Shown here piece after piece: positions 1,200 to 56,851 of a stretch of 64,000 nt of DNA. The notes under the pieces are model-generated. The model saw nothing but the letters and a program-made list of their open reading frames with translations, ran no database searches and was not told the origin of the DNA. The position numbers and the translations under genes were made by a program. How positions within the stretch are numbered: position 1 is the stretch's first letter; each line of letters begins with the position of its first letter. Source of the stretch: Candidatus Aenigmatarchaeota archaeon (lineage in GTDB: Archaea; Aenigmatarchaeota; Aenigmatarchaeia; GW2011-AR5); the NCBI GenBank assembly GCA_016193585.1, contig JACPRW010000003.1:263303-327302 (forward strand), given 5' to 3'.

Positions 1200-1313
1200 T
1201 TGGTTCACTTACACCCAAAAAGCAAAGCTTTTTGGTGCACCGGAAAACTTTGTTTTCCGCGTGTAGCGGACAACAAAAGTAATATGTCGGTATTCTTTTG
1301 TTGGTCCACTATA
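1200..1313. repeat. Composite palindromic repeat: end of module A + double hairpin X1 (1212-1263) + module D (1264-1313)
   Basis: Near-identical to 10510-10623; D also at 21185-21236 in the opposite orientation. Confidence 0.9.
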
Positions 1314-1321
1314 ATCACATT

Positions 1322-2402: not shown

Positions 2403-2552
2403 TGCTCAAAGAACTCAAGTTCTTTGGCATCTCAAAGAAGCTTTGCTTCTTTGCAGATATGGTGAATTGCACTGGTTATGTCCTGATATTATTTGCAATT
2501 CACCTATAGAAAATTGCGCGTTAATACGACATAAGCTGCGCAATTATCTATA
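2403..2552. repeat. Composite palindromic repeat: double hairpin + module H (2458-2508) + module I (2505-2552)
   Basis: H-I pair recurs (reverse complement, with nested inserts) at 42255-42478. Confidence 0.9.
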
Positions 2553-10361: not shown

Positions 10362-10377
10362 GATGCATGAATAATCA

Positions 10378-10623
10378 TATAGTGAACCAAGTAAATAATC
10401 AGGTATTATAGCAATACAAGGAAATAAACAGGATATATTACTTCCTTGTTTGCTATATGTGAAACAAGAAGCAATATGCCGATGTTATTTTCTTGTTTCA
10501 CTATATAGCTTGGTTCACGTACACCCAAAAAGCAAAGCTTTTTGGTGCACCGGAAAACCTTGTTTTCCGCGTGTAGCGGACAACAAAAGTAATATGTCGG
10601 TATTCTTTTGTTGGTCCACTATA
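10378..10623. repeat. Nested composite repeat: A split by B (10407-10457) + C (10454-10505), then X1 (10522-10573) and D (10574-10623)
   Basis: Each module recurs elsewhere or shares the consensus; junctions are TA/TATA. Confidence 0.9.
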
Positions 10624-10719
10624 AAGCAGGCTTGGTGTTCTGAAAATGAAGTCTCGAGGAAATAAAAGAAGACTTCTTTTCAAAGACACCGTTTATGAGA
10701 TGCATGTGGTGCTCTGAAA

Positions 10720-11562
10720 ATGAAAGGCATTGTGCTCGGCATCGGCGTGCTGCTGCTTGCTCTCGTGCTGTTCAGCATGGCATTCATGCTCGCCGAGAGC
10801 AGCGGCCGCAAAAGCAGGGACATCGACAGGCTGCATGTTTTCGACCGGCTTGACGACGAACTGAAAGCAACGGAAAACGCCTACCGTGATATCGTGGGCA
10901 AGGCAATCATCATTTCCAGGGGCAACCGCACCGTGTTTTTTAACGAAACGCTTCCCAGCGGCGATGCGGCAAGTTTCACGGCGAACGTGGACAACTTCAG
11001 GGCATTTGTCGGGAGTCATTCCCAGTTTGCCATGAAGCTGGATATGAGCCAAGTGACATCAACGCTGCCGCTTACCATACGTCCTGCAGGCGTTCGCTAC
11101 GACCACCCGAGCGGATTCGGCAACGGCACCATCGACATAACGAATGCGCAGGCGGTTCTGCGCTACAATGTGAGCATCCTTGTCAACAGGTCGCATAATA
11201 CCCCTACAAAATGGAAAGACGGACCTAACGTTGATACAAATGGCATTGGATTTGATATCACCATCAGCCACAATGGCGGTACTGATTTTGCCTATTCAAA
11301 CAAGCTGAGCACAACACTGCCTTCCGCCATTGAGATAAAGCTTCCCGGAGGAAATAACGAAATAACCATTACCATAGGGAATGCAAGTATGCCAGGCATG
11401 CTGCATATTACAAACAATGACGCCACCATCCGCGCGTTTGTCGCCGTCAACATGACCGTGAACACGACGGACCTTATTTCCGTCAATTTTCCCGAAAAAA
11501 GTATTAATATGACGGCCCCTGAATATAACATCAGCAAGCTGGACGCGGTGCGAGTTGACTGA
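10720..11562 (+). CDS. Pilin-like/secreted protein of the pilus locus
   Basis: MKG plus hydrophobic N-terminus, Asn/Thr-rich beta domain. Confidence 0.75.
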   Translation: MKGIVLGIGVLLLALVLFSMAFMLAESSGRKSRDIDRLHVFDRLDDELKATENAYRDIVGKAIIISRGNRTVFFNETLPSGDAASFTANVDNFRAFVGSHSQFAMKLDMSQVTSTLPLTIRPAGVRYDHPSGFGNGTIDITNAQAVLRYNVSILVNRSHNTPTKWKDGPNVDTNGIGFDITISHNGGTDFAYSNKLSTTLPSAIEIKLPGGNNEITITIGNASMPGMLHITNNDATIRAFVAVNMTVNTTDLISVNFPEKSINMTAPEYNISKLDAVRVD

Positions 11563-12133
11563 CATGCCAAAACAGCAGGACGAGAAGCTGAAGAAGCTCG
11601 AGGACGACCTGAAGGAGCTGGAGCGCCGCATCGAAGGCGAGATCAGCGACACGAGGCGGCGTGTGAAGGACGACATGCAGCAGCTCGAGGCTTCGTTCAG
11701 GACATTCAGGGACGTGATGAAGAAAATCTACGAGGAGAAGAAGGAACTCGAGAAGGACAGGGACTTCCTTCTCGAAAAGCACAAGGAACTGCTCCGCAAG
11801 CTGCCGCTGCAGGTAGCAGCAGGCGTGCAGGAGAAGCTCGTCGCGCCGGTGCAGCAGGCAATCCAGGAACAGGCGGATTTCATCACAGTAGCTGCCAAGG
11901 GAGGCGATGAGGCCCAGAAGGAAACGACGCCCATCGACGAGCTGTTCGCGTATGTCGCCAAAAACGGCAAGGTCAGGGTGAACGAGGCTGCGAAAAAATT
12001 CAACGTGCACGAGGTTCGCATCGAGGAGTGGGCAAAAATACTCGAGGAGCACGGGCTCATTGAGGTTCATTACCCGCCATTCGGCAAGGCCGAGCTGCGG
12101 AAAGCGCGGATAGAAACCGCCGCAGCGAAATAA
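11555..12133 (+). CDS. Coiled-coil protein with C-terminal winged-helix-like domain
   Basis: 192 aa; IEEWAKILEEHGLIEVHYP; precedes the pilus ATPase. Confidence 0.7.
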   Translation: MTDMPKQQDEKLKKLEDDLKELERRIEGEISDTRRRVKDDMQQLEASFRTFRDVMKKIYEEKKELEKDRDFLLEKHKELLRKLPLQVAAGVQEKLVAPVQQAIQEQADFITVAAKGGDEAQKETTPIDELFAYVAKNGKVRVNEAAKKFNVHEVRIEEWAKILEEHGLIEVHYPPFGKAELRKARIETAAAK

Positions 12134-12181
12134 GACGTCCGGTTCATTAATCTTTAATTCTGCCAAAAGCCATGTACATGC

Positions 12182-13681
12182 ATGGCTGTCGTGAAAAGCT
12201 ACAGCGTTCTTGTTGACGGCGTGAAAATCGACGTTCATGTTGCCGAGAAGGAGGATTTCATCAGGACGTACCGCATTGCGCTGCCCGAAATCTCCTCCGC
12301 GACGCTCGCGCTGCTCGACACCGTAAAGGAGGAGCTCCTCAAGGAGACGAAAATAGCACCGGAGGAAATATTCGACCCGGCGAGGATACTCAGCCTCAGG
12401 GAGGAGTTCCGGAAGAAGGCTGACATGCTGGTGTCGCGCAAGATCCCCGGCGTCAGCGACAGGACGAAAAACATGCTTGCCGCGTTCCTTCTCCATGAGA
12501 TGCTGGGACTGGGAAAGCTCGAGGTACTTCTCGCCGACGGCGATCTTGAGGAGGTCGTCGTCAATTCGGCGAAAGAGCCGGTGTGGGTGTACCACAAGAC
12601 CTACGGCTGGCTGAAGACGAACGTGGTCATGGAAAGCGAGCGGCAGGTCCAGAACTACGCGAGCATCATAGCGCGCCGCGCCGGCAGGCAGATAACAACG
12701 CTCGAGCCGCTGCTCGATGCGCATCTCGTGACCGGCGACCGCGCCAATGCGACGCTGTTTCCCATCTCGACGAAAGGCAACACGCTCACCATCAGGAAAT
12801 TTGCCCGGAAGCCGTGGACAATCGTCGACTTTATAGCCAACAAGACGCTCAATGAGGAAGCTGCAGCCTTCCTCTGGCTGTGCATCCAGTACGAGCTCAA
12901 CATGATCACCGCGGGCGGCACGTCGAGCGGCAAAACAAGCCTCATGAATTCGCTCATGCCGTTCATCCAGCCGAATCATCGCATCATAACCATCGAGGAT
13001 ACGCGCGAGCTCCGGCTCCCGGACTTCCTGCACTGGGTTCCGCTCACCACGCGCCAGGCAAATTCCGAGGGGAAGGGTTCGGTTGAAATGCTCGACCTCA
13101 TGGTAAACGCGCTTCGGATGAGGCCCGACAGGGTCGTTGTCGGCGAAATACGGCGCGGGGACCAGGCGGAAGTCTTGTTCGAAGCGATGCATACCGGTCA
13201 CAGCGTCTATGCAACGCTCCATGCCGATACCGTTGACCAGGTCCTGCGGCGCCTTACCAACCCGCCTATCAGCATCTCGCAGGTGATGCTCGAGGCGCTG
13301 CACGTCGTCAACGTCATGTACCGGGACAGGAGAAAAGGCATACGGAGGCTGTACCAGGTTGCCGAGCTCGTGCCGACAGGCGAGAGCGACGAACAGATCG
13401 TTCTCAAGTCCAATGTCCTCTATCGGTGCAAGCCGTCCGGCGACATCGTCGCGCATGACGAGTGCGTGCGGGTTTTCGACGCGCTGAAGATGCATACCGG
13501 CATGACCGAGAAGGAGCTGGTAGCAGATTTGTCAGAGAAGATTGCTGTGCTTGGATGGCTTGTTGCGCAGAACGTGAGCGATATGCCCGATATAGGTAAA
13601 GTCATAGCAGCGTACTATGCCGATTCCGGGCAAGTCGTGAAGCTCGCCCAGGCAAAAGGAAAGCCGGAAAAACTGTGGTGA
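12182..13681 (+). CDS. Type II/IV secretion system ATPase (CpaF/TadA/VirB11 family)
   Basis: GGTSSGKT, IEDTREL, LRMRPDR, GEIR, MHTGH. Confidence 0.95.
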   Translation: MAVVKSYSVLVDGVKIDVHVAEKEDFIRTYRIALPEISSATLALLDTVKEELLKETKIAPEEIFDPARILSLREEFRKKADMLVSRKIPGVSDRTKNMLAAFLLHEMLGLGKLEVLLADGDLEEVVVNSAKEPVWVYHKTYGWLKTNVVMESERQVQNYASIIARRAGRQITTLEPLLDAHLVTGDRANATLFPISTKGNTLTIRKFARKPWTIVDFIANKTLNEEAAAFLWLCIQYELNMITAGGTSSGKTSLMNSLMPFIQPNHRIITIEDTRELRLPDFLHWVPLTTRQANSEGKGSVEMLDLMVNALRMRPDRVVVGEIRRGDQAEVLFEAMHTGHSVYATLHADTVDQVLRRLTNPPISISQVMLEALHVVNVMYRDRRKGIRRLYQVAELVPTGESDEQIVLKSNVLYRCKPSGDIVAHDECVRVFDALKMHTGMTEKELVADLSEKIAVLGWLVAQNVSDMPDIGKVIAAYYADSGQVVKLAQAKGKPEKLW

Positions 13682-21184: not shown

Positions 21185-21281
21185 TATAGTGGACCAACAA
21201 AAGAATACCAACATATTACTTTTGTTGTCCGCTATAAGTGAACCAAGATATAATACCTGATTATTTACTTGGTTCACTATA
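21185..21281. repeat. Composite repeat: module D (21185-21236) + intact module A (21235-21281)
   Basis: Reverse complement of the A/D modules at 1200-1313 and 10378-10623, lacking X1. Confidence 0.9.
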
Positions 21282-21418: not shown

Positions 21419-21469
21419 ATGCATAGTGTTATTGGCTATAAAAAAGCTTTAATAAAAGCCGCGGCAGGA

Positions 21470-23308
21470 TCAGACGAAGATCTTCAGCGTGTGCTTCACG
21501 ATTGCCTTGAGCACGTCCCTTCCCACGTCGGCATCCTTGCTGACGCGGATGACACCGCCTTTGCCGACGGTCGCCGAGAACAGGTACTCCTCGCCGATGT
21601 AGAAGTTCGCTATCTTTCCCGTCATCTTTTCCGGCAGCGTGACGACAAGGTACGCGCCTGTTTCCTCAATGGAGAAGGAGACCTCCTTGCCGAGCGTCGC
21701 GATCTTCGGCAGCACCTCGATGCTGATGCCCAGCTTCTTTTCGAGCTCCTGCACCGTTTTTCCCTGCTTGCCGATGAGGCGGGGGATGACGTCGTTCTCC
21801 ACGCGTATGGCCACCTTGTTGTCGCCGATGATTTCGACGTCCGCATGCCGGTCGAATTTTCTGACCTCAGAAAGGATGTACCTGCGCGCGAGGGCGCTGA
21901 CGGCAGATTGCTTGCTCCCTGTCACCGGTATGATGACTGTTTCCTCGCCGTACGTGTAGAGCTCGTACTCCATTTCGTTGTTCTCGAAATTCCTGACCTC
22001 GACCACCGGCCGCGCCAGGTCTGCCTCGGTCATGCCGGTCGGCGTCCGCACGACGAGCACGAGCGAGTACACCTTCTCTATCCTTCCCGCCCTGATGTAG
22101 ACGATGGTATCGATGACGTGCGGTATCATGCCCAGCTCGACGCGCCCGACGAACCGCTGCACTGCGTCAACAGGATTCGTGGCGTGCACCACGCCGATCA
22201 TGCCGATGCCGGCAAGCCGCATGTCCGAGAACACGAGGAAATCGTTCGTCTTTCGCACCTCGTCGAAGACCGTGTAATCAGGCCTGACGAGCAGGAGCAT
22301 GTCAGCCGTATTCTCGAAGCTGCCTTTCAGTTTCGAGTACTGGGTTATCTCCGGCTTGACCTGAAGGTCGCGCGGCGATTCCATCGTCTTGACTATTTTT
22401 CCCTGCTCCTCGTAAAACTCGGCTATTGCTGCTGCAAGCGTGCTTTTCCCCGACCCCGGAGGGCCGGCAAGTATGACGCCTTCGGCGCGCTTCGCGAGCC
22501 GCTCCTTGAGCTTTTCGGAGAGCTTGTAGTCGTCGAGCGACATCTTGATAACCGGCCGCACCACGGTGATTTCGACACCGTCCGAGAACGGCGGCCGCGC
22601 GACGGCGATGCGCATGTTGCCGTGCTGGATGACGCTGGCGGCATGCCCGCCAACCTCGATGAACGAGTCCTCCTCGTAGCGGGCGGCATCCATGACGTCC
22701 TTGATGATAGCTTCCATCTCCTTGACGGTCATGGGCTCTTCCCTGATGGGAACGAGCGCGAACGAGTCCGGCTTGCCGCGCTTGGCGAGCGGGATGCAGT
22801 TCTCCTTGAGGTGCAGGCTCATGGTGTCCTCGGTGAGCATAGGGGAAAGCTTCGTTTCCTTTTTTTTCTCATACGGCTTGAAGAAAACAGTTTCCACGCC
22901 CTCTGCTTCTGCGACAAGGCTCTGCACCATGTCGCTCGTGTACAGCACCGCCTTTGCGTCGCGGGCCACGTCGAGGATGAGCGCGTCGATCCTGCCGTAT
23001 TTGGCGAGCTGTATCTCCTCCATCGTCTGGCGCCTGCCGAGGCGGGCAACCGTCACCTTTTCCTCCTTCTCGAAATTCCGTATCTTCTTCAGTTCGTCAA
23101 GGCCCTTGAAGCCTATCTCTCTGCCGCGGGAGGCCTGCGCCCTGAGTTCCTCGACGACAAACTCGGGAATGAGTATTTCAGTGTCCTGAATCTCCCCTTT
23201 CTCGATGAGTTCGCTGAGTCTGCCCGATATGATGACGCTCGTATCAGGGACAATTTTCTTTTCCTCTTTCATGTAATCACCTTGTATCTTCACGTAAGCA
23301 AGAAGCAT
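21470..23308 (-). CDS. PINc/VapC-family ATPase with KH domain (PINA-type)
   Basis: PIN (VPDTSVII), GPPGSGKS, KH GKQG motif. Confidence 0.92.
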   Translation of the reverse strand: MLLAYVKIQGDYMKEEKKIVPDTSVIISGRLSELIEKGEIQDTEILIPEFVVEELRAQASRGREIGFKGLDELKKIRNFEKEEKVTVARLGRRQTMEEIQLAKYGRIDALILDVARDAKAVLYTSDMVQSLVAEAEGVETVFFKPYEKKKETKLSPMLTEDTMSLHLKENCIPLAKRGKPDSFALVPIREEPMTVKEMEAIIKDVMDAARYEEDSFIEVGGHAASVIQHGNMRIAVARPPFSDGVEITVVRPVIKMSLDDYKLSEKLKERLAKRAEGVILAGPPGSGKSTLAAAIAEFYEEQGKIVKTMESPRDLQVKPEITQYSKLKGSFENTADMLLLVRPDYTVFDEVRKTNDFLVFSDMRLAGIGMIGVVHATNPVDAVQRFVGRVELGMIPHVIDTIVYIRAGRIEKVYSLVLVVRTPTGMTEADLARPVVEVRNFENNEMEYELYTYGEETVIIPVTGSKQSAVSALARRYILSEVRKFDRHADVEIIGDNKVAIRVENDVIPRLIGKQGKTVQELEKKLGISIEVLPKIATLGKEVSFSIEETGAYLVVTLPEKMTGKIANFYIGEEYLFSATVGKGGVIRVSKDADVGRDVLKAIVKHTLKIFV

Positions 23309-23385
23309 CCTGTACGAAACAAAAGCCTCTGCTAGAGAAGTAAGAGTCTTCTAAGAGTATAGCCGGCATGCTTAAATGCTTTTCT

Positions 23386-31464: not shown

Positions 31465-31713
31465 ATCAGCAGAAAACGATGCAGAAGGAAAACTGCCCTT
31501 AAGGCGTGCAGGGACATAGATTCTGCCGCGGTCGTCAATCTTCGCGGAAAACGTCCGGGCGGCAAAGCTAGAGAAATCGCGCTTCAGATTGCCGCGCTTA
31601 CTGCAGGTGAAGGCACTCGCCTGTGGGGTCTATCAACTCTCACTGGTAACACCTTCCATTCCTTACCGCACAGTTCTACTTAAAGATTTTGTGGGTAAAT
31701 GGTTGTGTTTACT

Positions 31714-31808
31714 TATAGTTAACCAAGTAAAGAATCCGGATATTATAACTTGGTTCACTATATGTGACCAACTTGTGTAATACCTGAATATTAAGTTGGT
31801 CAGCTATA
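31714..31808. repeat. Two single-hairpin modules: A' (31714-31762) + J (31759-31808)
   Basis: TATAG...CTATA termini, shared TATA junction, AATNCNGGATATTAT-like loop. Confidence 0.85.
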
Positions 31809-31923
31809 AAGGTTGATTTTTCCCATGTTAAAAAATTGGTTGTTTCGTTGTTTTTTGTTAAATTTTCGGTTACATAAAGTAGAATTAAAAGGTTTATGAT
31901 TCATGTAATAAAATCTGATTTTA

Positions 31924-32706
31924 ATGACAAAATTAAATCTCATACGTCCTTTAGCTTTCATTGACTTAGAAACTACTGGTCTCAATACGCAACAAGATCG
32001 TATTGTAGATATATGCGTAACAAAAATTTACCCAGATGGAAAAGAAGAATCATTGAGTTCTTTTATTAATCCAACTATACTGATTTCTGTTGAAGCTACA
32101 AATATCCATGGCATAACAAATGCAGATGTTGAAGGTAAACCAGTTTTTGGAGAATTTTCATCACAATTATTTGATTTTATAGATGGATGTGACTTGGCCG
32201 GATTCGGAATAATAAAGTTCGATTTTCCTGTTCTTGAATCTGAATTCAAGAGAGCCGGAATAGTTTTTTCAAAAGATGGCAGACAAATAGTCGATGTTCA
32301 AAATATTTATCACAAATTAGAACCCAGAGATTTAAGTGCCGCACACTTAAGGTACTGTGGCAAGGTTTTAGAAAATGCACATAGAGCACAGTCCGATGTT
32401 AAGGCAACTATAGATGTGCTTGAATCTCAATTGGAACACCACACTAATTTGCCACATGATATTTTCGGTCTGAATGAATTTTGCAACCCGAAAGACCCTA
32501 CGTGGATTGATGAGGACGGAAAATTTGCATGGTTTAAGGACGAGGCTATTGTAAATTTTGGAACTCACAAAAGCAAGACACTTCAATCTATATGTAGGGA
32601 TAAACCTGACTACCTTCAATGGATTATAAGTAAAGATTTCTCACCGAAGGTCAAACAGATAGCTGAAGACGCCCTTCGAGGCAAATTCCCAATACGGCAA
32701 GCATAA
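31924..32706 (+). CDS. DEDDh 3'-5' exonuclease (DnaQ/PolIII epsilon-like), AT-rich
   Basis: FIDLETTG, FD, HRAQSDV; far more AT-rich than neighbours by eye. Confidence 0.92.
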   Translation: MTKLNLIRPLAFIDLETTGLNTQQDRIVDICVTKIYPDGKEESLSSFINPTILISVEATNIHGITNADVEGKPVFGEFSSQLFDFIDGCDLAGFGIIKFDFPVLESEFKRAGIVFSKDGRQIVDVQNIYHKLEPRDLSAAHLRYCGKVLENAHRAQSDVKATIDVLESQLEHHTNLPHDIFGLNEFCNPKDPTWIDEDGKFAWFKDEAIVNFGTHKSKTLQSICRDKPDYLQWIISKDFSPKVKQIAEDALRGKFPIRQA

Positions 32707-32723
32707 AGTTAGGTCTTGTGAAT

Positions 32724-32820
32724 TATAGCTCTACAAGGAAACAACCAAGATATTATTTCCTTGTGAGCTATATGTGAAACCAGTTGTAATATATCCAGAT
32801 TATTTACTGGTTTCACTATA
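32724..32820. repeat. Two single-hairpin modules: K (32724-32772) + F (32769-32820)
   Basis: Same consensus as the other modules. Confidence 0.85.
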
Positions 32821-33073
32821 ATTATAATACATTTGGCATGCTGGTACACGCGCTCAATCATGATCGCGCTATTATGGAGCGTGTGCTGAATGAGATGTAT
32901 GAAATAAACAATTGGAAAGAGAGAAAAGGGCTAAAAGCCGAATGCTGCAAGAGTACTTCTGTCCAAATCGACATGATGCCGAGTTACTGAAAAAAATTCT
33001 TCCGGATATATTCCCACTTTTCACTCTCATACGCTCGGCGCGCTTTTATTACAACGGGAAGCTAATACTACGC

Positions 33074-41270: not shown

Positions 41271-42188
41271 CTACTTTATGGAATCGATTTCCTCGTCCAT
41301 TTCTTTCCTGAGTTTCTCCTCGAGCCTGCCCGAATAGTAGTCTATGCGCGCCGCAACCATGAGCTTGGAGGCGATGATGCGCGCGACCTTCCCGCGGTTC
41401 TCGGCGCGCGCGTTCTGTATGCGGTTGTCGAGGAACAGAATCCCGTATTTCGGTGATTTTCCCTGTTTCTTGAGATGCCTGAACAATGCCTTTTCCGCCC
41501 CGAGCAGTTGGATTGCCGAGGCAGGAAGCCGCGCGAGCTTTTGCAGCGACCCCGCGCCCGCAAGCATCTTCGCTGCCAGGAGCGGATCGACGAGCGAGCA
41601 GGTCGTCGGCGCAATCTCTGTCATGACGCGGCGCACGTAGTGCTCGAGCATTCTTCGCTCTTCGTTGACGGACGCGATCATGCGCGCATACGCGAACAGG
41701 GCTTCCTTGTCGCTGTCGGTCAGCTCTGCGCCGGCGCTCCCGGCGAAATCAGGGAATTGCTCCCGCGTCCCGTATGCAAGCGTTTTGGCAAGCAGCTCTC
41801 TCCCCGCTATGCGAAGCTCGGGATAGTGGAGCGTGTACCATTCGGTCAGGCGCTCGAGGAATACGGAGAGGACCTTGTCGAGGCTTTCGAGGGCGTTGTT
41901 TGCATGGACTGCGAGTTTGTCCCTGCCGATGATGCCCTTGAGTCCTTTGCGCGAGAGTGCGAGCGCAAACTGTGACATGAACCTAACCCATGCACTATCG
42001 TCGGCGACAAAGCCGAGGGAAATCGCGTGCGGGCGCAGGCTGGCGCCGATATACGCTGTCTGCTCTGGCGCCGCCAGGAATTCATCGACGGCCTTCTCCG
42101 GGTCGGTGACGAAGAGCGCATGCTTGGCAAGCCTGCCGTCGTCTGAGAACGTCAGTATGCCGATGGGCGTTTTAATCGGTGATGCCAT
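41271..42188 (-). CDS. nop5: Nop5 (Nop56/58) C/D snoRNP protein
   Basis: EWYTLHYPEL, PASAIQLLGAEKALF, SPKYG. Confidence 0.94.
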   Translation of the reverse strand: MASPIKTPIGILTFSDDGRLAKHALFVTDPEKAVDEFLAAPEQTAYIGASLRPHAISLGFVADDSAWVRFMSQFALALSRKGLKGIIGRDKLAVHANNALESLDKVLSVFLERLTEWYTLHYPELRIAGRELLAKTLAYGTREQFPDFAGSAGAELTDSDKEALFAYARMIASVNEERRMLEHYVRRVMTEIAPTTCSLVDPLLAAKMLAGAGSLQKLARLPASAIQLLGAEKALFRHLKKQGKSPKYGILFLDNRIQNARAENRGKVARIIASKLMVAARIDYYSGRLEEKLRKEMDEEIDSIK

Positions 42189-42254
42189 GCGTATTTAAAA
42201 TTAAGGAAGGTATTAAAGCGTTTGACGGTGGATGCATTACGTTGTAAAATGGGA

Positions 42255-42681
42255 TATAGATAATTGCGCAGCTTATGTCGTATTATAGCAATACAAGGAA
42301 ATAAACACGATATTACTTCCTTGTTTGCTATATGTGAAGCAAATGTATAATATCGGTATTATTTATTTGCTTCACTATAACGCGCAATTTTCTATAGGTG
42401 AATTGCAAATAATATCAGGACATATAGTGAACCAAGTAAATAATCAGGTATCCACTATAACCAGTGCAATTCACCATACATGCAGAAGCAATGCTTCTGC
42501 TGTACAGGTGGAACAGAGTTCCACCATGTATCTTGAAGAGCAAATCTCTTCGAGGTGCTCAAAAACCAAAGGGTTTTTGGCATGCCAAAGAAGCGCAGCT
42601 TCTTTGAGCATGGCAGAAAGCATGCGCTTTCTGAGCACGACACGCGTAATATGGGATACGACGCACGGAGTGCGGGGTATT
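42255..42681. repeat. Large nested array: I[B+E] + H[A/D remnant] + X3 + four-hairpin chain + Z motif
   Basis: Comparison with uninterrupted H-I at 2458-2552 and with 54803-55061. Confidence 0.9.
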
Positions 42682-42870
42682 ATGGGACGAATCAAGACTG
42701 CCGATATCAAGAAGGCTTCAGGGGAACTTCTGTCTGCCTATAGCAACAAGTTCTCAACCGATTTTGCAGCCAATAAAGAGGTACTCAAGGAGTTCAATAT
42801 CACTGACGAGAAGCGGACCAAGAACAAGATAGCCGGTTACATCACGCGGAAGATGAGGCAGCGGGCGTAG
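42682..42870 (+). CDS. rps17e: 30S ribosomal protein S17e
   Basis: MGRIKT...F..DF..NK...KRTKNKIAGYIT; true start 42682 (the ORF-track N-terminus is repeat-derived). Confidence 0.95.
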   Translation: MGRIKTADIKKASGELLSAYSNKFSTDFAANKEVLKEFNITDEKRTKNKIAGYITRKMRQRA

Positions 42871-43395: not shown

Positions 43396-43408
43396 CCCAA
43401 TAAAATAT

Positions 43409-43610
43409 TATAGTGAAGCAAATAAATAATACCGATATTATACATTTGCTTCACATACATGGTAAAGCAAAGCTTTACCTGTACGGGTGAAACGTTGTTT
43501 CACCATGTATAGCAAACAAGGAAGTGATACAAGGTGGATTCCATGAATCCACCTGTACAGGAGAATCTTCGATTCTCCTCGTATCGTGTTTATTTCCTTG
43601 TATTGCTATA
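43409..43610. repeat. Composite E (43409-43457) + X2 (43458-43507) + B interrupted by X5 (43530-43581)
   Basis: Recurs at 44765-44912 (inverted, without X5) and 51634-51771 (truncated). Confidence 0.92.
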
Positions 43611-44764: not shown

Positions 44765-44912
44765 TATAGCAATACAAGGAAATAAACACGATAGTACTTC
44801 CTTGTTTGCTATACATGGTGAAACAACGTTTCACCTGTACAGGTAAAGCTTTGCTTTACCATGTATGTGAAGCAAATGCATAACATAGGTGTTATTTATT
44901 TGCTTCACTATA
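44765..44912. repeat. Composite B + X2 (44814-44863) + E
   Basis: Inverted copy of the 43409 composite. Confidence 0.92.
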
Positions 44913-49145: not shown

Positions 49146-49509
49146 TCTTGAATGCCTTGAAAATTGCTGCCATCGTACAAAAGACTTCCGTGAAGTCTTT
49201 TGGCGACTTAGGTTAATCCTCGATTAACCTCAAGTCAGGCAGCAGATGCAAAGAAAAGCAACGCTTTTCTTGCACTGGAAGACTGCACGTCTTCCTTGTG
49301 CAACAAGGCATTCGGGATCTTCAAAGAGCAGAGCTCTTTGAGATCTCAAAAACCTCTGGTTTTTGCAGATGCCATGCTCCACGGAAACCACCGACTGCAG
49401 TCGGTGGTATAGAGGAGCATATCATGCTGAACATACAGTATAGCAGGTTCGAACGAAAAGTTCCAGTATTATTCGAACCTGCTATAAGGGAAACCTGAGG
49501 TTTCCCTTG
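49146..49509. repeat. Continuous ~360-bp array of hairpins including an AGATCT-linked double hairpin (49317-49370) and module L (49439-49486)
   Basis: At least nine perfect or near-perfect stems read directly from the sequence. Confidence 0.85.
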
Positions 49510-49518
49510 GGTCCTCAA

Positions 49519-49636
49519 TGGGCCCGGCAGGAATTGAACCTGCGACCTTCGCCGTTTCTTCAACACTTTCCTTCTGAAAGCTTAGTGAAGGCGACATTTG
49601 GTAGACACTCGTCTCATACCACTAGACTACAGGCCC
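49519..49636 (-). tRNA. tRNA-Val(CAC) with introns at about 23/24 (49598-49614) and 36/37 (49556-49584)
   Basis: BHB helices GGTA/TACC and CTTC/GAAG; only these boundaries give a 7-nt anticodon loop; mature 72 nt. Confidence 0.88.
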
Positions 49637-50887: not shown

Positions 50888-51654
50888 AGGTTTCGCCTGT
50901 AAAAACAGGAAAGATTGTCGCCGGGCAGGACCTCTATTCTTTGCTCGACACGTGCCTGGAAACATGCGAAGAAAAATCACTGCTCGCCATCACGTCCAAG
51001 ATAGTTGCTCTATGCGAAGGCCGCATCGCCAGCATGGATGCGGACAAAAAAGCCCTTATACAGCAGGAAGCCGAATATTATCTGCCTCATGAAGAAAGCA
51101 GATACAACACCACGCTTGCGATAAAAGGGAACATCATCGTCCCTGCTGCTGGCGTGGACGAATCGAATGGCAACGGCTGCTACGTGCTGTGGCCTTTGGA
51201 CCCGCAGAAATCAGCGAATGAGATACGGTCGTACCTGCGCAAAAGATTCTTTCTGAAGCATGCCGGCGTGCTTATAACCGACAGCAGGACAACGCCGCTG
51301 AGACGGGGGACGACGGGTGTCGGCATCGCGCATAGCGGCTTTTCCGCCATCAAAAATTACATAGGTCGTAAAGACGTATTCGGCCGTACGATGAAGATAA
51401 CCAGGGCAAACATACTGGATGCTCTGGCAGCAGCAGCCGTCGTCGTTATGGGAGAAGGTGCAGAACAGACGCCCCTTGCTGTACTCGAGGACATCCCGTT
51501 AGTGGCGTTTCAGGAAAGGAACCCGACACGAAAAGAGCTGCAAGACCTGAGCATAAGCATCGAGGACGACCTGTACGCGCCTATCCTCAAAAGGGCGAAA
51601 TGGAAGAAGGGAGGGCAATATAAAAAATCTTTTTATAGTGAAGCAAATAAATAA
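50884..51654 (+). CDS. CofE-like gamma-glutamyl ligase (putative folate polyglutamylation, FolC2-like)
   Basis: ITSKIVALCEG, AGVDESN, ITDSRTTPLRRG, GEG.EQTP; C-terminal YSEANK* comes from repeat E. Confidence 0.85.
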   Translation: MKVSPVKTGKIVAGQDLYSLLDTCLETCEEKSLLAITSKIVALCEGRIASMDADKKALIQQEAEYYLPHEESRYNTTLAIKGNIIVPAAGVDESNGNGCYVLWPLDPQKSANEIRSYLRKRFFLKHAGVLITDSRTTPLRRGTTGVGIAHSGFSAIKNYIGRKDVFGRTMKITRANILDALAAAAVVVMGEGAEQTPLAVLEDIPLVAFQERNPTRKELQDLSISIEDDLYAPILKRAKWKKGGQYKKSFYSEANK

Positions 51655-51771
51655 TACCGATATTATACATTTGCTTCACATACATGGTAAAGCAAAGCTT
51701 TACCTGTACAGGTGAAACGTTGTTTCACCATGTATAGCAAACAAGGAAGTAATACAAGGTGGATTCCATGA
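51634..51771. repeat. Truncated composite E + X2 + B/X5
   Basis: Near-identical to 43409-43546. Confidence 0.92.
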
Positions 51772-54802: not shown

Positions 54803-55061
54803 CTTGAAGAGCAAAGATCTTCGAGTTGCTCAAAAACCAAAGGGTTTTTGGCGTGCCAAAGAAGTGCAGCTTCTTTTGGGCATGTAGAAAGCACGTGCTT
54901 TCTGAGCACGACGCAGCATACAACAAGGAGTTCCGAAGAACTCCTTGTGTACACAAAGACTTTCGAAGAAAGTCTTTGTTGTAAGCCAAGCGTTGCTGCG
55001 GGGCATGGTCCATTTAATATGGGATACGACGCAGCATAAGCCAAGCGTTGCTGCGGGGTAT
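54803..55061. repeat. Four-hairpin chain + duplicated Z motif, first copy interrupted by double hairpin X4 (54921-54981)
   Basis: Homologous to 42532-42681; local filled/empty pair with TA duplication. Confidence 0.9.
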
Positions 55062-55331
55062 TTAGACAAGCGTCACGTCGCCTGCCTCGACGCTCTCGAC
55101 GTCGGGAATAGCTGCAAGAGCCTTTTCAATGGCGTCGGTTCCGTGGGCATCGGGCATGAGCAGCAGCACGCTAAGCGCCTTGAGGCCGAATGCTATCGGC
55201 TTTTCCTCGATGCTCTGCAGCTTGACGTCCTGTACCGCGCTGGCAGCGCCGCGTATCGCCTCCTTGATGCGTTCCAGGTTGGCGTCAGGCGATGCGGGCA
55301 TGACCTGCAATGTTACCGCAACAGTTCCCAT
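55062..55331 (-). CDS. ef1b: Translation elongation factor 1-beta
   Basis: VMPASPD, IEEKPIAFGLKAL. Confidence 0.95.
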   Translation of the reverse strand: MGTVAVTLQVMPASPDANLERIKEAIRGAASAVQDVKLQSIEEKPIAFGLKALSVLLLMPDAHGTDAIEKALAAIPDVESVEAGDVTLV

Positions 55332-55631: not shown

Positions 55632-55756
55632 GCCCTTGTAGTCTAGCTTGGATATCTGAGGAAAGCAGAGCTTTCCAAGATCTCGAAAAACAGGTTTTTC
55701 GAAGAGGACACGAGGTTGCGGACCTCGGAACCCGGGTTCAAATCCCGGCGGGGGCA
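55632..55756 (+). tRNA. tRNA-Arg(GCG) with a D-loop intron (about 55654-55704) made of a double hairpin
   Basis: CGAGG-TTGCGGA-CCTCG anticodon arm; D-stem GTCT/GGAC restored on removing 51 nt. Confidence 0.9.
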
Positions 55757-56851
55757 CTATTTCTTCGGGGTCTTATACCAGGAGATAGGGATTCCGAGCG
55801 CCATTTTCGCCAGCACGACGAGCACCACCCCGATAGAGAAAAGCGCGAGCAGGGAGGCGATGAATGGCGCGCCTATCGTTTCTGCTGCCGTCAGGTAGCG
55901 CGCAGCCTGATACATGGCAATGAGCATGGCAGCAGCCACGCCAGCCAGCGCAAGCGCATTGCCGGTGAAGAAGAAGAGCGCGGCGAGGAGCGGGATGAAG
56001 GCGTAAAAGTATACGACGGTCACGACAACGGGGAACATGAGGATGACCGACATGAGGTCGGTGCGGCCGGCTTTTCCGACCTCGCCTATGCAGCCGCGGA
56101 CCCAGCGCTCGTGCTGCCTGAACATATGGCCGAGTTCAGAAGGGACGAGCTCGCTTCCTCGAACGCCGGGATGGTAGAGGATTCTGCTCTTGCTGTGGAA
56201 CAGCCGGTGGTTGAGGTTGATGTCTTCGGTGAGCCCGTGGCGGAAGCCGCCGAGATGCATGAGCCTCTTCCGGTATATGGCAAAATTTCTGCCGCCGATG
56301 CCGGCAGTCATGAACACGCGGGAGAACAGGTAGTTTGCTACAGGCAGGAGGACAAGCTCGAGACGTGCGAGGAGCGGTGCCATGCCTCCTTTGTTGGTGC
56401 CTATTGTTATGCCCACGACAACCGGCGTTTCATCAGACAGCGATGACGCGATGGCCGCGAATGCGCCCCGTTCCGGCGTCGTGTCGGCATCGAGGAAATA
56501 CAGCACCTCATTTCCCGCTTTTCTGATGCCTATGTTGAGTGCGGCGCCCTTTCCCGAACAGCGCGTGTCCCTGCAAATCTTTGCGCGGTAGGTTCGTGCA
56601 GCCCGCGCGACGTCCTTCTCTCCGGTGCTGTCGATGACGATGATTTCTATCGACCGCTGCGGGTAATCAGCCGCCCTGATTGCGGCGAGTGTCTTCCTGA
56701 GAATCCGTCCCTTCTCGGCATTCGCAATGAGGACGGAAAACGTCGGCCGCCCTGCGCGCCGGCGCGGTTCGTAGGGAACCAGCATGCAGAGGAGCATTGC
56801 AGCATATACCGCCGTAAATCCTGCGCCAACAAGGGCGGCAATGTCTGCCAT
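55757..56851 (-). CDS. Membrane GT2 glycosyltransferase
   Basis: GKGAALN, FLDADT, TEDI, RQHERWVRG; start reassigned. Confidence 0.88.
   Translation of the reverse strand: MADIAALVGAGFTAVYAAMLLCMLVPYEPRRRAGRPTFSVLIANAEKGRILRKTLAAIRAADYPQRSIEIIVIDSTGEKDVARAARTYRAKICRDTRCSGKGAALNIGIRKAGNEVLYFLDADTTPERGAFAAIASSLSDETPVVVGITIGTNKGGMAPLLARLELVLLPVANYLFSRVFMTAGIGGRNFAIYRKRLMHLGGFRHGLTEDINLNHRLFHSKSRILYHPGVRGSELVPSELGHMFRQHERWVRGCIGEVGKAGRTDLMSVILMFPVVVTVVYFYAFIPLLAALFFFTGNALALAGVAAAMLIAMYQAARYLTAAETIGAPFIASLLALFSIGVVLVVLAKMALGIPISWYKTPKK

Follow-up and report, generated by a model that had tools for sequence, protein, structure and literature searches.

Nested Hairpin Doublets in an Aenigmatarchaeota Intergenic Spacer, Probable Non-autonomous Mobile Elements Stacked at TA Dinucleotides

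Introduction

Correia repeat enclosed elements (CREE) of Neisseria duplicate a TA target, and to our knowledge no cognate transposase has been identified for them. Miniature transposable elements with inverted repeats (MITEs) of the Stowaway/IS630 kind also duplicate TA, fold back as palindromes and nest in one another with a readable order; IS630 itself duplicates the TA of an NTAN target, and nested Stowaway and Tourist insertions were reportedly described by Jiang and Wessler (2001) in maize and rice. The termini of CREE read TA-TAG (TATAGTGG...) in a study that names no such enzyme (PMC5039591). Repetitive extragenic palindromic (REP) elements form heterodimers and clusters, and in Anabaena REP dimers lie inside TATAGGA...TCCTATA palindromes (Di Nocera et al., 2013, PMC3733652). 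A MITE census recorded a high MITE density in some DPANN genomes (PMC11602168), and in the literature we found no description, for DPANN or Aenigmatarchaeota, of elements such as those reported here. These elements are short hairpins that fill the 427-bp spacer at positions 42255-42681 of a 64-kb stretch of DNA from a Candidatus Aenigmatarchaeota archaeon (64,000 nt of contig JACPRW010000003.1, hereafter the window), between the divergent genes for Nop5 (41271-42188, minus strand) and S17e (42682-42870, plus strand). The spacer is probably a pile-up of non-autonomous hairpin doublets that resemble either MITEs or REPs and the bacterial interspersed mosaic elements (BIMEs) built from them, and that are moved in trans.

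Results

The Nop5-S17e spacer is tiled by nested modules

The original prediction, made from the letters of the sequence, held that this spacer parses completely into modules, and the parse proved correct almost to the base. Exact string location divides 42255-42681 into 10 gapless pieces, nine of which have copies elsewhere in the window (Table 1). Adjoining pieces overlap by a shared TA, with a 4-nt TATA instead of the 2-nt TA at the I-H junction. Palindrome I is split by the doublet B-E and palindrome H by an internally deleted A/D composite (A/D-delta), as had been proposed, and an uninterrupted H-I doublet near the start of the window is the exact empty form of both hosts: excising each guest plus one TA from the spacer yields I and H exactly. 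B, the first half of the doublet inserted into the loop of I, matches 44765-44813 at 98% across the unit. In A/D-delta, 27 nt from the left end of A are followed by the final 6 nt of D; it is thus the A..D doublet minus its interior, with both outer ends kept, and no further copy was found in 66 loci or in viral contigs. A second full copy of X3 is absent from the window. Z, the piece nearest S17e, has 18 nt that are identical at 55014-55033, and it holds what looks like the native S17e promoter-proximal motif.

The same nesting emerges from folding. As single-stranded DNA the spacer folds at -107 kcal/mol, compared with -46.7 +/- 4.2 kcal/mol for shuffled sequence (z = -14.2), and its minimum-energy structure is the Russian-doll parse. 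Intergenic DNA has 4.5 perfect hairpins of at least 8 bp per kb, whereas coding DNA has 0.13 and shuffled intergenic DNA 0.07 (about 35-fold and 60-fold differences).

The whole stack is bracketed by a 13-nt direct repeat. The left copy is probably the native TATA-box region of S17e, since relatives have TAAAATGGATAC about 15 nt upstream of the S17e start. The motif GTAAWATGGGA(TA) stands three times in the spacer (42244-42256, 42646-42658 and 42677-42687), its last copy overlapping the S17e start codon; these copies could be a duplicated or transduced promoter fragment. An 18-nt version of the motif, matching the second copy of the bracketing repeat, recurs inside the array at 55 kb (55014-55033).

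Units keep their feet and their pairing while stem sequences vary

Two classes of unit make up the arrays. Class 1 is a palindrome of about 48 nt that runs from TA-TAG through a stem, an A/T-rich apex and the returning stem to CTA-TA. It has two shapes, the K/B type with TATAG at both ends and a bulged T, and the A type with TATAGTG at one end and CACATA at the other. Class 2 is a mini hairpin of about 24 nt with a 7-9-bp stem, a 3-4-nt loop and CAKG/CWTG feet, usually present as an X doublet of about 52 nt (TA-CAKGG..CCTG-TA-CAGG..CCWTG-TA) centered on TGTACA; mini-hairpin stems draw on a limited vocabulary. Feet read TATAG or TACAKG, and TAGTGG in element D only. A script counted 17 class-1 units in the window; over all loci its count was 103, which includes a few false positives. 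Twelve of the 13 class-1 blocks in the window are doublets of two unlike units with a shared TA (H-I, B-E, B-F, D-A, G-J, K-L), each about 95 nt long, composed of near-perfect palindromic units and ending in TATAG and CTATA. Doublets are conserved as such across metagenome loci at 85-95%, and a derived junction, CACA-GA-TAG, is common to doublets at five unrelated flanks. The propagating unit is the doublet.

Pairing was examined with a covariance model (R1) built from nine K/B-type units with a hand-given structure, with which 87 matches were recovered from the window and 36 loci. A plain MAFFT alignment had given no structure with RNAalifold, owing to register shifts that the hand-given structure and the covariance model resolved. 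Every significant match in the window is intergenic. In the covariance alignment of 78 distinct rows (most units being entered with both strands), pairing holds in 94.6% of cells, and 205 cells are changed on both sides, compared with 63 +/- 5.7 in shuffles (none of 500 reaches 205); the covariation score is 0.405, versus 0.125 in shuffles and 0.03-0.07 in slid controls. Positions 1-5 (TATAG/CTATA) are almost invariant. Furthermore, 19 distinct X doublets have the same feet and different, always compensated stems, and hairpins flank CTGTAYAS on both sides at 16 of 35 sites, compared with 5 of 3300 random positions. Together, the families vary in stem sequence with pairing kept, and what stays constant is a few end nucleotides and the A/T-rich apex.

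Insertions occur at single TA dinucleotides

In all eight comparisons of filled with empty sites, the empty site has one TA and the insert is flanked by TA on both sides. Six lie within this genome (five in the loops of I, H, A, B and Z, one at the B-E junction that received X2), and two, for doublets G-J and K-L, are comparisons with another genome, represented by locus L071. Once G-J and K-L are removed, an alignment of the window to L071 (949 nt, 92%) runs through both junctions without a break. In L071 the empty sites read GTTTACT-TA-AAGGTTGA for G-J and GTGAAT-TA-ATTATA for K-L; both are T-TA-A, an NTAN-type context, and the doublets that entered are 93 and 95 nt long. The base before TATAG is T in 57% of 120 distinct TATAG ends. 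With the two clean empty sites, this makes T-TA-A a tendency of the target, not a rule.

Syntenic spacers in relatives tell a similar story. Two relatives (loci L011 and L012, with isoleucyl-tRNA synthetase, IleRS, 69% and 66% identical) keep the gene order fibrillarin-Nop5, S17e-NUDIX-GHMP kinase. The Nop5-S17e spacer measures 51 nt in L011, 41 nt in L012 and 493 nt in the window; from NUDIX to GHMP kinase the lengths are 21, 2 and 194 nt, and from GHMP kinase to the next gene 40 nt in L011 and 128 nt in the window. By this comparison, the extra spacer DNA of the window is inserted material.

The position of nestings stands out, not their frequency

A readable insertion order had been predicted, and host-guest relations were indeed seen without a cycle. 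H receives A/D, I receives B-E, A receives B-F, B/K-type units and Z receive X, and the B-E junction receives X2; among the nestings seen, none places a class-1 unit of about 48 nt inside an X. The composites cited in the same prediction (at 43409, 44765, inverted, 51634, 21185, 10378 and 1200) were all found. All 11 nestings lie at the TA of the host apical loop, and four distinct interrupted K/B-type hosts were all entered at the same GA-TA-T, host detection being biased toward this loop result by its requirement for intact arms.

The further proposal that elements preferentially target earlier copies is not supported by the counts. In a simple TA-enrichment test, five clear nestings against 12 founding insertions gave P = 0.68, with modules holding 186 of the 580 intergenic TAs (32%), and over all loci only about 5 of 80 class-1 blocks lie inside a hairpin host. 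In a sequential simulation, the clustering into 12 spacers reaches significance only when at least 30 modules count as independent events. That independence assumption is violated: doublet and composite copying, together with purifying selection on the 2-50-nt spacers of a compact genome, would give the same clustering. It is the position of the nestings that stands out, and not their frequency.

Composites had also been thought to move jointly, their outer ends mobilizing whole stacks. The first half of this claim holds, as the contents of doublets were co-copied (139 nt at 99%), whereas outer ends alone do not seem to shape the stacks. Truncated composites break in hairpin loops (51771, 1200 and A/D-delta), and the stacks are therefore probably shaped by hairpin-induced deletion or recombination as well. 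The copy at 1200-1314, which begins at the 3' arm of A, stops 8 nt short of an intron-containing tRNA gene.

Element families are shared by deeply diverged genomes

The window IleRS is 57-63% identical to proteins of named organisms, nearly all of them Aenigmatarchaeota (DPANN). An exact 29-mer of element A is present on five contigs of another Aenigmatarchaeota metagenome-assembled genome (MAG), JACRMW01 (36% GC), where element A matches at 48/49 positions and the module types and nestings of the window recur. Between the two genomes, FEN1 reaches an identity of only 49%. An 18-mer metagenome scan gave 51 matches, of which about 30 are genuine loci (31-50% G+C) and about 20 were discarded as chance matches. 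Class-1 units are absent from the relatives L011 and L012 and from L071; few hairpins occur in L010-L012, and L010-L012 and L071 together hold almost no units or hairpins. G+C content is about 55% in the genes of the window and 28-45% in element-bearing spacers, the elements themselves standing at about 30% and not adjusted to their 55% GC host. Many element copies in the window are 98-100% identical. The families are thus common to deeply diverged Aenigmatarchaeota and absent from closer relatives, which, as far as sequence comparison goes, points to lateral spread. Spread and recent activity are both suggested by the 48/49 match of element A despite 49% identical FEN1, by the absence from closer relatives, by the unadjusted G+C and by the near-identical copies.

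A viral or phage vector was considered and rejected, four exact-pattern scans of viral contigs having given two chance 18-mer matches only and a phage BLAST search nothing. Short-read assemblies of the same organism (Logan contigs L001-L004 and L067) end inside arrays, at the I/B junction near 42280, at K-L near 32792 and in the array at 51.7 kb.

Transposase candidates, neighboring genes and other features

Neither the window nor about 300 kb of loci yielded an autonomous partner whose ends match, and Pfam and NCBIfam searches of the window found no gene for a REP-associated tyrosine transposase (RAYT) flanked by REPs. An exonuclease, a PD-(D/E)XK nuclease and unannotated open reading frames (ORFs) beside arrays were tried as transposases and found no support; the gene beside the 44765 array has a same-sized, unannotated counterpart at the same position in L011. 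Repeated ORFs between metagenome arrays were rejected as well, as they belong to nucleotidyltransferase-type, toxin-antitoxin-like cassettes, a rhomboid protease and the like. The former are two-gene cassettes (an MNT-type nucleotidyltransferase plus a small ORF) between class-1 arrays (Table 1).

The exonuclease lies in a low-GC (36%) cassette of about 1 kb at 31700-32845, where ORF 31924-32706 encodes a DEDD 3'-5' exonuclease (RNase_T, E = 1.5e-19). The cassette DNA is 92% identical to L071, a 43% GC relative, and the exonuclease 90% identical in amino acids, whereas the adjoining PIN-ATPase gene is only 71% identical, which implies a recent lateral exchange of the cassette itself. Homology to the closest relative, L010, ends at about 31699, just short of the cassette. 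A composite transposon carried by the flanking doublets was rejected for this island, as both doublet sites are empty in L071, which carries the same cassette; G-J and K-L thus arrived after the cassette.

Rfam at gathering thresholds reports only tRNAs in this DNA, and permissive searches add sub-threshold look-alikes of miRNA hairpins. Three of the four window tRNA genes found by Rfam are 97-118 nt long, implying introns. A further, probable intron-containing tRNA at about 55633-55757 was missed by ARAGORN and by the Rfam gathering score; its putative 3' half (55730-55756) closely repeats that of the tRNA at 1322-1422, and its putative intron contains a mini hairpin of the class-2 kind, TCGAAAAACAGGTTTTTCGA (55683-55702). 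The 350-nt array at 49160-49510 lies directly upstream of the intron-containing tRNA at 49519-49636 and carries GCAGATGC twice (at about 49243 and 49367), as if bordering an internal insertion. Long ORFs overlap on opposite strands at 11531-13495 (minus) and 12182-13681 (plus), and at 21419-23335 (plus) and 21470-23308 (minus). Pfam supports one ORF per pair only (a T2SSE ATPase and a PIN-KH ATPase), the partners being probably spurious shadows in 55% GC DNA.

Table 1. Positions of the spacer modules, of related composites in the window and of cassettes in metagenome loci (window coordinates unless a locus is named)
Feature	Position	Strand	Remarks
Left copy of 13-nt direct repeat, GTAAAATGGGATA	42244-42256	+	Brackets whole stack with right copy
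I-left, host palindrome arm	42255-42285		Ends in target TA; 42253-42285 is reverse complement of 2554-2522, 33/33, self-BLAST
B, 49-nt class-1 palindrome, K/B type, bulged T	42284-42332	+	Covariance model R1 74 bits, E = 1.7e-18
E, class-1 palindrome, A type, ends TATAGTG / CACATA	42331-42379	-	Second half of B-E; 100% to 43408-43457 and 51634-51682
I-right arm	42378-42396		Within 47/47 match of 42378-42424 to reverse complement of 2523-2477
H-left arm, second half of host doublet I-H	42393-42424		Same 47/47 match; pairs in the fold with 42458-42478
A/D-delta, in loop of H	42423-42459	+	TA-flanked; 31/31 to 10376-10406
H-right arm	42458-42478		Matches reverse complement of 2479-2459
X3, doublet of two 8-bp mini hairpins around TGTACA	42477-42530		Second hairpin, GGTGGAACAGAGTTCCACC, identical in L007
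Four-hairpin chain (one, then three closed by GTGCT...AGCAC)	42531-42638	+	90% to 54803-54912
Z: TAATATGGGATAC, small hairpin, GGGGTATT	42639-42681	+	Directly 5' of S17e ATG (42682)
Right copy of 13-nt direct repeat, GTAATATGGGATA	42646-42658	+	Other bracket of stack
A-hairpins-D, 5'-truncated	1200-1314	+	115 nt, 98% to 10510-10624
H-I, uninterrupted doublet	2458-2552	-	Empty form of both hosts
A split at loop TA by doublet B-F, two linker hairpins, D	10378-10626	+	
D-A, plain doublet	21185-21281	+	
G-J doublet	31714-31808	+	L071 site empty; 95% as doublet to L043, L053, L061
K-L doublet	32724-32820	+	L071 site empty; 85-90% as doublet to more than 12 loci
E-X2-B[X5]	43409-43610	+	X2 in junction TA of doublet, X5 in loop TA of B
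B-X2'-E'	44765-44912	+	Inverted, more diverged version of E-X2-B
About eight different mini hairpins and solitary class-1 unit M (49439-49486)	49160-49510		Adjoins tRNA
E-X2-B[X5 truncated]	51634-51771	+	139 nt, 99% to 43408-43546; ends inside first X5 hairpin
Hairpin chain, Z hairpin split at loop TA by X doublet, second Z	54803-55063	+	
MNT-type cassettes	L016 5111-6170; L020 2149-3157, 3865-4906; L023		Two copies in one locus (L020)

Discussion

The modular tiling, the exact empty forms and the TA-bounded filled sites show how these stacks form. A doublet enters at a TA and leaves a TA on each side, and the TAs of older apical loops, together with the TA between the two hairpins of a doublet, are re-used, giving rise to Russian dolls. 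Content that has landed within a doublet is copied along with it; hairpin-stimulated deletions would afterwards trim the composites. The enzyme would act in trans and read hairpin shape plus a short foot, in the way of REPs with RAYTs and of IS200/IS605 ends with HUH Y1 enzymes. A single-strand-DNA enzyme of the HUH/Y1 type is our tentative choice, one that we infer and hold with some reserve. The covariation and the two-hairpin layout would suit such an enzyme, and so would substrates of 24 nt and the use of single-strand-exposed TAs; loop and inter-hairpin TAs would be re-used because they are single-stranded once the hairpins extrude. We favor it by a small margin over a TA-specific DDE enzyme.

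Several observations weigh against trans-mobilized doublets or against their assignment to an enzyme of this kind. Neither the roughly 50 ORFs of the window, searched with Pfam and NCBIfam, nor the repeated ORFs of the loci yielded a transposase of any kind. RAYT-type enzymes are not known in Archaea, where the IS200 type is the only Y1 subclass recorded (PMC6006769), and the feet are ATAG/TACA and not GTAG. The covariance alignment was fitted to its own model, and covariation in a DNA palindrome can also arise from paired terminal inverted repeats or from arm-to-arm conversion. Duplication of a TA would look the same as TA-specific insertion, without duplication, of an element with a terminal TA of its own. 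The four distinct K/B hosts interrupted by X could descend from one old composite and not be independent insertions. Finally, asymmetric units stand in both orientations (4 versus 6), which a strictly strand-specific mechanism would not predict, in a window too short to tell the direction of replication.

The most serious alternative, with a real if minority share of the probability, is that the elements are MITEs of the ordinary sort, belonging to a TA-duplicating DDE transposon (IS630/Tc1-mariner, Stowaway-like) and moved by double-strand cut and paste, the palindrome of about 48 nt being two back-to-back terminal inverted repeats. The TA flanks and the single TA of all eight empty sites are what such a transposon would leave; so are the symmetric T-TA-A context (both L071 sites, and the T at -1 in 57% of ends), the occurrence of both orientations and the doublet length of about 95 nt, which is typical of MITEs. 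However, more than 12 families have only 5-6 terminal nucleotides in common, so that one sequence-specific enzyme per family would be needed, and this arm diversity argues against a single IS630/DDE partner. Nor does double-strand recognition require 8-bp hairpins to be kept in each half by compensatory change. Units go down to 24 nt, and neither the window nor the loci yielded a DDE gene.

It seems rather unlikely that growth of the stacks comes mainly from recombination, gene conversion or segmental duplication among arrays, with hairpin-induced deletion, instead of from whole-stack transposition through outer ends. Shared composites do end at arbitrary internal points, all at hairpin loops (51634-51771, 1200-1314 and A/D-delta); the chain and Z are common to two arrays along with flanking promoter-like sequence, and the direct repeat that brackets the stack would also suit this explanation. 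But the clean, TA-bounded empty doublet sites in another genome and the same doublets at many unrelated flanks require transposition of at least the doublets, which leaves recombination only a part of the story.

Host-selected structural signals (RNA-stabilizing or terminating stem-loops, or protein-binding sites), vertically conserved and not mobile, are a very improbable source of the arrays and as sole explanation largely refuted, since strong covariation, strictly intergenic location and TATA-like ends near promoters are set against syntenic spacers of relatives wholly without elements, the filled/empty pairs, near-identical copies in genomes whose FEN1 proteins share 49% identity, an element G+C that stays at about 30% inside a 55% GC genome and the lack of an Rfam family match; a secondary, co-opted function is possible.

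To return to trans-mobilized hairpin doublets, about one-quarter of the intergenic DNA in these 64 kb consists of recently inserted hairpin modules, although DPANN genomes count as streamlined; a promoter spacer of 41-51 nt has grown to 493 nt with the flanking essential genes retained. The elements are probably small enough for standard MITE finders to miss. Arrays of this kind break short-read assemblies, so that MAGs of the lineage are fragmented and MAG contiguity in the phylum is biased. Near-identical elements in genomes with core proteins only about 50% identical are a sensitive marker of DNA exchange among uncultured symbionts. Fixed feet, free but paired stems, travel as doublets and re-insertion into loops make up a natural data set on how a transposase may read DNA shape, and the architecture turns the search for the enzyme into a well-defined problem. 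It is conceivable, though speculative, that DPANN archaea possess a shape-reading transposition system that moves hairpins down to about 24 nt as doublets, targets TAs exposed in loops and between hairpins, and has spread laterally across Aenigmatarchaeota of 36-55% G+C; it might be an archaeal counterpart of REP/RAYT or unrelated to it, with an unrecognized HUH enzyme or a new enzyme family at work.

Comparison with Known Systems

Like CREE, the elements are non-coding, intergenic and promoter-proximal. CREE, however, measure 100-155 bp and have one conserved 26-bp inverted repeat with a core, whereas the units here are core-less, 24-50 nt long and fall into many families. Arm homology to the Correia repeat was rejected beyond TATAG, alignment scores averaging 4.07, compared with 4.13 for shuffled arms. 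Several general features of MITEs are present, in that the elements are short (24-100 nt), non-coding and multicopy, have terminal inverted repeats and show TA on both sides at filled sites. With Stowaway/IS630 MITEs they share TA flanks, palindromic fold-back and ordered nesting; those MITEs are 80-500 bp long, eukaryotic or bacterial, with long terminal repeats specific to a known transposase family and without covarying sub-hairpins.

Elements derived from IS200/IS605, such as the PATE-like elements of haloarchaea, offer a two-hairpin architecture, recognition through hairpins and possibly a precise single-strand "peel and paste" pathway; the doublets here likewise have subterminal hairpins at both ends. 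The insertion point of those elements lies 3' of a specific tetra- or pentanucleotide, on one strand, and their two hairpins are alike. In the doublets here the two hairpins differ and both orientations occur. The TA flanks are compatible with strand-specific insertion 3' of a fixed tetranucleotide and no duplication.

In architecture the arrays appear closest to bacterial REP/BIME/REPIN elements. Both consist of short extragenic hairpins with a fixed foot of a few nucleotides and freely covarying stems, and in both the hairpins stand at high intergenic density, whether singly, in doublets of unlike hairpins ("heterodimers") or in mosaic clusters. They differ in that the foot here is (T)ATAG or TACA instead of GTAG or CGTC, outside the GTAG/GTGG criterion, that the palindromes carry a foot on both sides, that a clear TA stands on each side of the insert, and that the host is an archaeon. 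The Anabaena REP dimer within a long palindrome nevertheless gives the same picture as an X doublet within a class-1 unit here.

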